Positions 33,185 to 33,405 of a stretch of 64,000 bases of DNA are shown in pieces. This DNA is from a virus (Duplodnaviria > Heunggongvirae > Uroviricota > Caudoviricetes): the IMG/VR virus record IMGVR_UViG_2529292913_000008. The stretch is one strand, 5' to 3'. Position 1 is the stretch's first letter. Each line of letters opens with the position of its first letter. The translations under genes were made by a program, and so were the position numbers. The notes below the pieces were generated by a model. It did not search any database and had not been told where the DNA came from. It saw nothing but the letters and a program-made list of their open reading frames with translations.

Positions 33185-33211
33185 AAAAAAAACGCCCACC
33201 CGAAGATGGGC
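33185..33211 (-). terminator. Rho-independent terminator (minus strand)
   Basis: Minus strand reads gcccatcttcgggtgggc followed by an 8-T run. Confidence 0.6.
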
Positions 33212-33388
33212 AAACTGGAAGCTCGTAACGCACTTCGGTGTTGCCACTTAGGCGTATGGTCAACCTGGCAACTCGGCGTCATGATGGGGAAGGAGTCACT
33301 ACCCCGCCATACTTGCCGCCGCGCCTGTCGCGGCTAACAGCTAAATCGCTCTATAAATCACGATTCATTGAGTCGATATTACACTAAT

Positions 33389-33405
33389 AAATTTATTAGA
33401 GCAAT
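33389..33405 (-). promoter_or_regulatory. C1 operator, exact 17/17 consensus (Op72-position)
   Basis: aaatttattagagcaat is the exact reverse complement of ATTGCTCTAATAAATTT; overlaps the dmt stop. Confidence 0.65.

Follow-up and report, generated by a model that had tools for sequence, protein, structure and literature searches.

A tmRNA-like module behind a DicF-type leader in the ban control region of a P1-type prophage

What RNA is made from a promoter of the phage repressor C1 when a terminator-type hairpin stands between the operator and the tRNA genes downstream of it? The question is raised by a 64,000-nucleotide (nt) stretch of caudoviral DNA (IMG/VR record IMGVR_UViG_2529292913_000008; this whole stretch is called the window below), where an exact C1 operator is followed on the minus strand by a hairpin with a U-run and, further on, by tRNA-Asn and tRNA-Thr. 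An earlier note on this DNA had singled out the operator and hairpin and had proposed a repressor-controlled small RNA (sRNA), or a leader, ahead of the tRNAs and the ban operon. By homology the locus is the annotated ban control region of phage P1, and hence not new. The more unusual feature, which that note overlooked, begins 3 nt past the U-run: a module of ~180 nt (33182-33005, minus strand) whose sequence suggests the tag-coding, mRNA-like half of transfer-messenger RNA (tmRNA) alone, with an added 5' arm complementary to the tmRNA of the host. The coordinates of all features are collected in Table 1.

The resemblance to tmRNA appears both in weak database matches and in the layout of the module. 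The block 33181-33006 is ∼72% identical to unannotated intergenic DNA of unrelated virulent phages. A permissive Rfam scan matched 33197-33091 to tmRNA_permuted (26.1 bits, E = 0.004), driven by UAAAUGCAAACGAUGAU...GUAGCGGCCUAA, and weak Rfam tmRNA matches of this kind recur across loci (26-33 bits, E ∼1e-3 to 2e-2). The scores lie below the gathering thresholds (26.1 versus 47 bits for tmRNA_permuted and 11.3 versus 50 bits for alpha_tmRNA). A scan at the gathering thresholds, which the earlier note had put forward as a check, returned nothing at the locus besides the tRNAs, and at 8 loci with arrays of the hairpin cassettes described below it likewise returned tRNAs only.

A pattern scan for the module gave at least 120 viral contigs, which together with the earlier loci and the window supplied 126 copies for comparison. 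The frame that starts at the resume codon GCA is exactly 10 codons long in all 126, while the other two frames vary in length. The predicted tags were ANDDLMMVAA in 40 copies (the P1 type, also that of the window), ANDDVVLMAA in 30, ANEEMYLAVA in 14, ANDDLMLMAA in 12 and ANDEQFLAVA in 11, with others in the remaining copies. The entropy at the three codon positions of the frame was 0.63, 0.40 and 0.92, respectively. The hexamer before GCA is either AUAAAU or GUAAAU, so that a U at −5 and an A at −4 are kept; we take these two bases to be equivalent to U85 and A86 of Escherichia coli tmRNA.

Base pairing 3' of the frame was assessed in an alignment of 31 sequences. The first predicted pseudoknot pairs ACGGGG with CCCCGU and its loop GUCG with CGAC, and the second pairs CAGA with UCUG and UCCCCG with CGGGGA. 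The covariation score of the pseudoknot region was 0.319; shuffles gave 0.140, with none of 500 reaching the observed value, and sliding the pairing partners gave no more than 0.143. Standard pairs filled 87% of the alignment cells versus 40-54% with slid partners. In the pseudoknot-forming helix all four pairs had changes on both sides. One of the two pseudoknots is well backed by covariation and the other partly. The hairpin 5' of the tag frame (the UUUAGAAAC region) had no covariation support in the same alignment.

As in bacterial tmRNA (SsrA, in its one- or two-piece form), the module has a GCA resume codon after U(−5)A(−4), a 10-codon AN(D/E)...(A/V)A frame, a stop codon within a hairpin and pseudoknots 3' of the frame, alongside the weak Rfam similarity; it differs in having no acceptor stem, T-arm or CCA, in its length and in its antisense arm. 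Without acceptor stem, T-arm and CCA the RNA could not be charged or bind as a tRNA mimic. ARAGORN at default settings reported no tmRNA, and at relaxed settings gave only 'pseudo' calls whose acceptor and T-arm positions varied by lineage. The one T-loop-like motif in the window, GGTTCGATT at 32984-32976, reads GGTGTGATT in P1, P7 and D6. A complete tmRNA, standard or permuted, was rejected on account of these inconsistent calls and the lack of conservation of GGTTCGATT. The 2025 tmRNA database paper (PMC11915505) describes only the converse type of partial tmRNA: that of the mycobacteriophage DS6A has no coding sequence, consists of the tRNA-like domain alone and is reported to inhibit the host tmRNA. 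Both are partial tmRNAs of phages, and that of DS6A is reported to interfere with host tmRNA; however, DS6A keeps the tRNA-like domain without a tag frame, whereas the module in the window would be the opposite half.

The 5' arm was characterized against E. coli K-12 ssrA. A blastn comparison of the module with this gene returned, besides same-sense similarity around the tag, a plus/minus match between ssrA nt 68-106 and the first ∼40 nt of the module. The target in tmRNA reads UAAAAAGCCGC-AAAAAAUAGUC-GCA AAC GAC GAA AAC UA, and spans the 3' strand of pseudoknot 1 (PK1), the region that sets the frame, and the resume codon together with the first five codons of the tag. For all 58 representative arms the best predicted duplex begins within tmRNA nt 60-73, and apart from a few spurious long-loop extensions the arms pair best within nt 60-109. 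Six representatives were taken further: the P1-type arm, the T1-like/array type, N4-like Bp4, Ackermannviridae phiEa2809, FelixO1-like JH2 and Kolesnikvirus Omen. Their predicted duplexes with tmRNA have 24-34 bp and energies of −27 to −40 kcal/mol, against −11 to −19 kcal/mol with their own tag regions; with the 58 arms included, the two ranges are −26 to −40 and −11 to −21 kcal/mol. Pairing with the own tag is weak because the phage frames (GAU GAU CUG...) diverge from the host frame (GAC GAA AAC...) exactly at the positions that the arm pairs. The observed duplex energy was reached by 0-4% of shuffles of these six arms, and 1-2% of the shuffled arms landed in the same part of tmRNA.

The internal bulges of the duplex vary by lineage, and UAGUUUUCGU opposite ACGAAAACUA is kept in all. 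In one member of the family (L115) the arm has collinear exact complementary blocks of 14, 6 and 10 nt, the 14-mer occurring in 0 of 2000 shuffles. Most of the 78 species of Enterobacterales and Vibrionaceae retrieved (Salmonella was not among them) share one and the same target stretch, which fits the conservation of the arm in phages that infect different hosts. Several phages have a consensus-like promoter from which the RNA would begin no more than a few nt before the arm; in phage Omen (L242) this promoter, TTGACA-17 nt-TAATCT, places the arm at the 5' end itself.

The module is widespread. It was found in 758 of 50,697 phage records, among them phages of Salmonella (270), Escherichia (226), Klebsiella (107) and Erwinia (50), and in at least five lineages (Drexlerviridae, Schitoviridae, Ackermannviridae, Ounavirinae and P1-like phages). 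Among 5426 E. coli genomes, 656 carry it, for the most part on P1-type plasmids. In the phage records its annotation is almost always missing or consists of a spurious 'hypothetical protein' called across the module. In the literature searched, which did not take in the 2004 P1 genome paper, no paper joins 'tmRNA-like' with phage in this sense, nothing relevant came up on antisense tmRNA in phage or on phage trans-translation, and none of six tag peptides was found in the texts; a P1vir RNA-seq paper has no mention of ban, dicF or tRNA. A tmRNA-derived module that combines an antisense arm with a tag frame is thus apparently undescribed.

Several carriers depart from the arrangement in the window. 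The modules of two Felixounavirus records (L241 and L245) and of Kolesnikvirus Omen are without the UUUAGAAAC hairpin, have double stop codons and lie inside tRNA clusters. In Bp4 (L004) ARAGORN found an unannotated tRNA-Ala(CGC) upstream of the module (1310-1381), and right after the module (1673-1751) lies a degenerate tRNA-like element whose D-arm and T-arm are good but whose acceptor stem is rich in G-U pairs, annotated in the record as 'tRNA-Cys(aca)'. In a 158-kb Ackermannviridae-type contig (L082), a T-arm and CCA-like end, GGGAGGTTCGATTCCTCCCTCCAATCCCA, follows ∼70 nt past the module with no obvious 5' acceptor partner, and could be a minihelix or a tRNA-like fragment.

The leader that precedes the module was identified through P1. 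The 171 nt at 33180-33350 match p1303_95, a P1-type plasmid prophage of E. coli 1303, with 100% identity, and the locus is accordingly read as part of such a prophage. Over the wider 1 kb the identity to P1, P7, SJ46 and RCS47 is 93-96%, and a 1001-nt query across it matched P1 (AF234172) at 93.4%. The curated record AF234172 has at these coordinates the divalent operator Obanab (formerly Op72ab), which 'controls expression of ban', the promoters P1ban and P2ban at matching positions, and a 102-bp 'dicF-like region' that corresponds to window ∼33281-33180; neither the terminator nor the tmRNA-like module is annotated there. The window and P1 agree in the operator pair, in both promoter hexamers and in the order dmt - operator - leader - tRNA-Asn - tRNA-Thr, and differ in the length of the U-run (U8 in the window, U6 in P1), in a hairpin of the leader described below and in the cargo genes 3' of the tRNAs.

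The claim that the window has a single perfect 17/17 operator was borne out: it is the sole site without a mismatch. Ten further sites have 1-3 mismatches, where 0.32 would be expected by chance, which gives 11 sites at up to three mismatches. The perfect operator and its inverted partner have the geometry of the bivalent Obana/Obanb arrangement of AF234172. The hexamers of P1ban were mapped from the P1 record onto the window; a generic promoter scan did not call this promoter, since its −35 element matches at only 3 of 6 positions. The layout is, as far as homology tells, that of a C1-controlled promoter, identical to P1 Oban(ab)/P1ban, and transcription would start near 33369, placing the end of the U-run ∼185 nt downstream. 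The perfect operator also overlaps the last codons and the stop codon (33396-33405) of the dmt-like methyltransferase gene (33396-35414, minus strand; Pfam D12 N6-adenine and C5-cytosine methylase domains), whose 3' end lies inside it, and the operator sequence is therefore under coding constraint as well.

The distance of about 180 nt given earlier between operator and terminator agrees with the 177 nt that separate the operator end from the stem start, and the hairpin described there as a strong terminator is indeed present with its U8 and conserved in P1, P7 and D6 (with U6). The stem of 7-8 bp is GC-rich, closes on a UUCG loop and runs into the U-run, the form of a Rho-independent terminator. 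Simple terminator patterns are not rare (2 found versus 2.1 expected in 2 kb); the support for the hairpin comes from this conservation and from the structure-preserving changes in one further copy (L097, GCCCACC..GGUGGGU). The ban operon and the tRNAs lie downstream under the same operator, so a substantial fraction of transcripts must read through. The hairpin may also serve the tmRNA-like module that follows it.

Upstream of the hairpin, the leader proved in a sensitive DNA search to be a mosaic of several blocks. One of them, a structured RNA of ∼100 nt here called element A, is homologous to the segment immediately 5' of the sRNA DicF in lambdoid prophages. Element A is ∼82% identical to the lambdoid phage and prophage segment, and 4411 of 5426 complete E. 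coli genomes contain a match. In phage mEp460 (L006) a genuine DicF (Rfam, 76.7 bits) follows this segment after 25 nt, and dicB lies further downstream. The predicted fold consists of hairpin a (GCCGCG/CGCGGC), a stem CGGY/RCCG around hairpin b (GGGG/CCCC), and hairpin c (GUUGCCAGG/CC..UGGCAAC). Compensatory changes are present at two base pairs (UA in 66 versus CG in 6, and UA in 58 versus CG in 14), and hairpin b differs in a compensatory manner between the window (GGCGGGG..CCCC) and P1 (GGCUGGG..CCCAG).

The position that DicF holds in lambdoid loci is taken in the window by a body, ACACCGAAGUGCGUUACGAGCUUCCAGUUU, confined to 20 P1-family phage records. The DicF covariance model (RF00039) had no match at E ≤ 10 in 32400-33600, and recovered the mEp460 copy, the positive control, at the 76.7 bits given above. 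The P1 'dicF-like' similarity is, in sequence terms, that of a conserved flanking element and not of DicF itself. Among 151 copies of the slot after element A from viral contigs, 92 held DicF, 46 the P1-type body and 13 other bodies, each of which ends in its own hairpin and U-run. In the window, too, the body lies behind element A and has a terminator at its end. Judged from these replacements, the position behind element A behaves as an exchangeable sRNA slot. The window thus shares with the DicF locus the upstream structured element and the series of element, ∼25 nt, short RNA body, terminator hairpin with U-run, and early genes that need read-through. It differs in that the DicF sequence is gone and that a P1-family-only body stands in its place. 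RNAduplex predictions between the slot RNA and the ftsZ initiation region gave nothing above shuffles, in a crude test in which DicF itself was likewise not significant. The equally crude and weak duplex test gave no signal for pairing of the slot RNA with tmRNA.

Six lambdoid viral contigs (L146, L150, L155, L173, L188 and L213) carry sRNA bodies behind element A that depart from canonical DicF, each with its own terminator. The spacer between DicF and dicB in mEp460 (1671-1880) has a sub-threshold match to Rfam STnc100 (40 versus 47 bits), and a motif related to this spacer, GUGAAUGCG...GCUGA, recurs in cassette arrays.

These results can be combined in a model of the whole region, which we hold with moderate confidence: the start of the C1-repressed ban transcription unit would comprise a DicF-type leader followed by a tmRNA-derived module. 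As Op72ab overlaps P1ban, transcription would be off in the lysogen and on after derepression. The transcript, from near 33369, would be non-coding for ∼650 nt, with a first module of the DicF-locus type. Some transcripts would end at the hairpin and give an RNA of ∼185 nt, which may be trimmed, as with DicF, to a 3' sRNA of ∼55 nt. The remainder would read through, since the tRNAs and ban depend on Pban, and would carry the tmRNA-like module. Its arm would then anneal to the exposed nt 67-106 of host tmRNA, covering up the 3' strand of PK1, the bases that set the frame and the first codons of the tag. This would at least block normal tagging, and may also offer the phage frame to the rescued ribosome.

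Several points weigh against this model. The P1-type arm is the most degenerate of all, with exact blocks of 9, 6 and 8 nt, and a 9-mer occurs in 4% of shuffles. In an unbiased blastn search of ssrA against the whole window it ranked ∼8th (22.6 bits, E = 3.4). Because this arm is weak by itself, the case for the arm rests on family-level data, drawn from related and non-independent lineages. The target is invariant in the hosts retrieved and Salmonella phages carry the same arm, a comparison in which tracking of the host by the arm could hardly show; in Salmonella itself the fifth tag codon may differ. The start of transcription, the efficiency of termination and the processing are inferred. 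The 185-nt RNA folds with −66 kcal/mol (z = −1.9), a modest margin over shuffles. We know of no precedent for a tag template annealed in trans. Finally, in D6 the homology to P1 starts exactly at the hairpin, without a C1-type operator or element A, so ending a short RNA need not be the purpose of the hairpin.

The behaviour of D6 leads to an alternative for the leader, in which the hairpin and U-run are mainly a 5' boundary, protection or processing hairpin of the module, read-through from Pban is near complete and no discrete short RNA is made. Besides D6, this would accommodate the need of ban and the tRNAs for read-through and the finding that in other phage lineages another stable helix, or a promoter, directly precedes the arm. 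However, no U-run is present before the arm in those lineages, while the window has a 7-bp GC-rich stem, a UUCG loop and U6-U8 as in a textbook intrinsic terminator, and the equivalent hairpin in lambdoid loci is the terminator of DicF; we regard the alternative as unlikely, though not negligible. Of the earlier proposal, the part that concerned a C1-controlled sRNA or leader before the tRNAs and ban is strengthened by the C1 promoter layout, the non-coding structured leader and the terminator-type hairpin. By analogy, the promoter could plausibly yield a short C1-controlled RNA of ∼185 nt or a leader, since the homologous lambdoid locus makes the DicF sRNA at the equivalent hairpin; the discrete short RNA stands less firmly, given that ban requires read-through and that the hairpin travels without the operator in D6. 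Read-through could also be promoted by element A itself, acting in cis as a processive antiterminator RNA like put of HK022 and letting polymerase past the following terminator both in P1 and in the lambdoid dicF-dicB region. The put RNAs are ∼70 nt long, with two stem-loops, and need no protein factor (PMC9378689). Element A resembles put in being a folded RNA that lies close to a promoter and upstream of terminators of a phage early operon; it is conserved, ∼85-100 nt long and built of several stems, and in both genomic contexts it stands between a promoter and a terminator that must be passed. But element A has three stems rather than two, had no similarity beyond chance to HK022 20000-32000, where the put sites are expected, and is missing from D6, which carries the hairpin; it could equally be a scaffold on which RNase E or RNase III processes the slot sRNA. 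As an HK022 put by sequence it was rejected, and as a functional analogue we rate it improbable. Least likely of all is a small protein encoded between operator and terminator. Mechanical open reading frames (ORFs) of 27-55 amino acids (aa) exist in the interval, and RefSeq calls one of them, on the opposite strand, as a 55-aa 'hypothetical protein'. However, none of the ORFs that run across the U-run with 25 aa or more is preserved from the window to P1 and P7: the 2-nt difference in U-run length shifts their frame or removes their start, and the RefSeq protein is one of these unconserved ORFs. The curated P1 record has no coding sequence between dmt and tRNA-Asn, in line with the earlier statement that the interval holds no convincing ORF, and the small protein was rejected.

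For the module, the question is whether its frame is ever translated. It could be a pure antisense inhibitor or decoy of host tmRNA that blocks tagging or triggers RNase III cleavage, its frame never being read. The stretch of tmRNA to which the arm is complementary is single-stranded and critical for function, the module has no tRNA-like domain that would deliver it to a ribosome, and the tmRNA of DS6A that lacks a coding sequence is a precedent for a phage RNA inhibiting host tmRNA (PMC11915505). This possibility, which we hold tentatively at best, leaves unexplained the fixed length of 10 codons, the coding-like substitutions, U(−5)A(−4), the Ala-Ala-stop ending and the stop codon in a hairpin; moreover, the arm avoids complementarity to its own frame and looks designed to leave that frame single-stranded. 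The invariant frame, the kept frame-setting bases and this avoidance suggest, as a further step, that the phage frame serves as a tag template. In such a trans-assembled hybrid tmRNA, the ∼180-nt RNA would dock on charged host tmRNA by its 5' arm, displace the 3' strand of PK1, offer its own resume codon and 10-codon frame at that site and put a phage tag (ANDDLMMVAA, ANDDVVLMAA, ANEEMYLAVA and others) in place of ANDENYALAA; we consider this doubtful as well, to a similar degree. A functionless, decaying fragment of a captured tmRNA gene would account for the missing tRNA-like domain and the scores under the Rfam gathering thresholds, but hardly for the retention of the module by phages of at least five families or subfamilies, in 758 records, the compensatory changes in the pseudoknots and the invariant frame length, and is very improbable.

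The operator-terminator pair alone adds little to what is known of P1, the refinement being a conserved flanking element with an exchangeable sRNA slot. The module occurs in model and therapeutic phages (P1, FelixO1-like, CBA120-like, N4-like and T1-like). If it is functional, manipulation of ribosome rescue would be routine among phages, whether tagging is blocked or the tag is rewritten, and its place among phage tRNA genes would be explained. Should the tag swap be true, the fate of rescued proteins would be reprogrammed by the phage.

Table 1. Positions of the features of the ban leader region within the window
Feature	Position	Strand	Description
C1 operator Op72a / Oban-a	33405-33389	−	ATTGCTCTAATAAATTT; 17/17 consensus match; asymmetric 17-bp site
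C1 operator Op72b / Oban-b	33378-33394	+	15/17; inverted, 6-bp overlap with Op72a
P1ban sigma-70 promoter (by homology)	33376-33404	−	−35 TTGCTC 33404-33399, 17-nt spacer, −10 TAATAT 33381-33376
Element A, structured RNA	33334-33236	−	~100 nt; homologous to segment immediately 5' of DicF in lambdoid prophages
P1-family-specific 'sRNA-slot' body	33235-33212	−	ACACCGAAGUGCGUUACGAGCUUCCAGUUU; ~24 nt; in the position held by DicF in lambdoid loci
Intrinsic-terminator-type hairpin	33211-33185	−	Stem GCCCAUC-UUCG-GGUGGGC (33211-33194), then G, U8 (33192-33185)
5' arm of module	33182-33146	−	Complementary to E. coli tmRNA nt 67-106; exact collinear blocks nt 96-104, 86-91, 74-81
Conserved UUUAGAAAC hairpin region and hexamer GUAAAU before resume codon	33160-33124	−	U at −5, A at −4
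Tag-like frame	33123-33091	−	GCA AAC GAU GAU CUG AUG AUG GUA GCG GCC UAA; ANDDLMMVAA*
Stop-codon hairpin and two predicted H-type pseudoknots	33090-33005	−	3' of tag frame
'Hairpin cassette'	32999-32926	−	ACAGGUAAGGGCGCU...AGCGUCCUUACCUGU; one copy; arrayed in other phages
P1/D6-family conserved non-coding spacer	32925-32719	−	Up to tRNA-Asn; last 140 nt nearly invariant
tRNA-Asn(GUU)	32718-32643	−	Next leader unit (ARAGORN, Rfam)
tRNA-Thr(UGU)	32640-32565	−	Next leader unit (ARAGORN, Rfam)

Between the module and the tRNAs, the block 33004-32719 is specific to the P1/D6 family, and no wider homologues of it were found. The hairpin cassettes, of which this block contains one, have the form CACAACAGGTAAGAGCATT-[40-120 nt variable insert]-AGTGCTCTTTCCGTTGTG, some inserts having a T-arm-like GGTTCGAAT, and gave no Rfam match at the gathering threshold. 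They occur in tandem arrays around the module in many viral contigs of ∼47 kb, and also after DicF-slot variants in lambdoid contigs; the loci are L012, L015, L020, L021, L118, L124, L155 and L188. Within the conserved spacer, UACGUC (∼32923-32918) is complementary to GACGUA, the loop of a GCCGG...CCGGC hairpin (∼32745-32725). P1 has UGCGUU and AACGUA at those places, including a C-G to U-A compensatory change, and the complementarity suggests a long-range or loop contact.

Further downstream, between tRNA-Thr and tRNA-Met(CAT), the latter being tRNA-Ile2 in the P1 annotation, the window has at 30387-32127 (minus strand) three ORFs instead of plp, upl and tciA-C of P1. One encodes a Band_7/SPFH protein of 275 aa (PF01145, E = 1e-30), and the other two encode a 78-aa protein and a crAss001_48-related protein of 137 aa (PF21825). 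Elsewhere in the window, Rfam matches at the gathering level were obtained for sok antitoxin RNA (50740-50914, minus strand), RNA-OUT of IS10 (8739-8808, plus strand), the P1 C4 antisense RNA (54369-54454, minus strand) and the a1/b1 target of C4 (54522-54574, minus strand).

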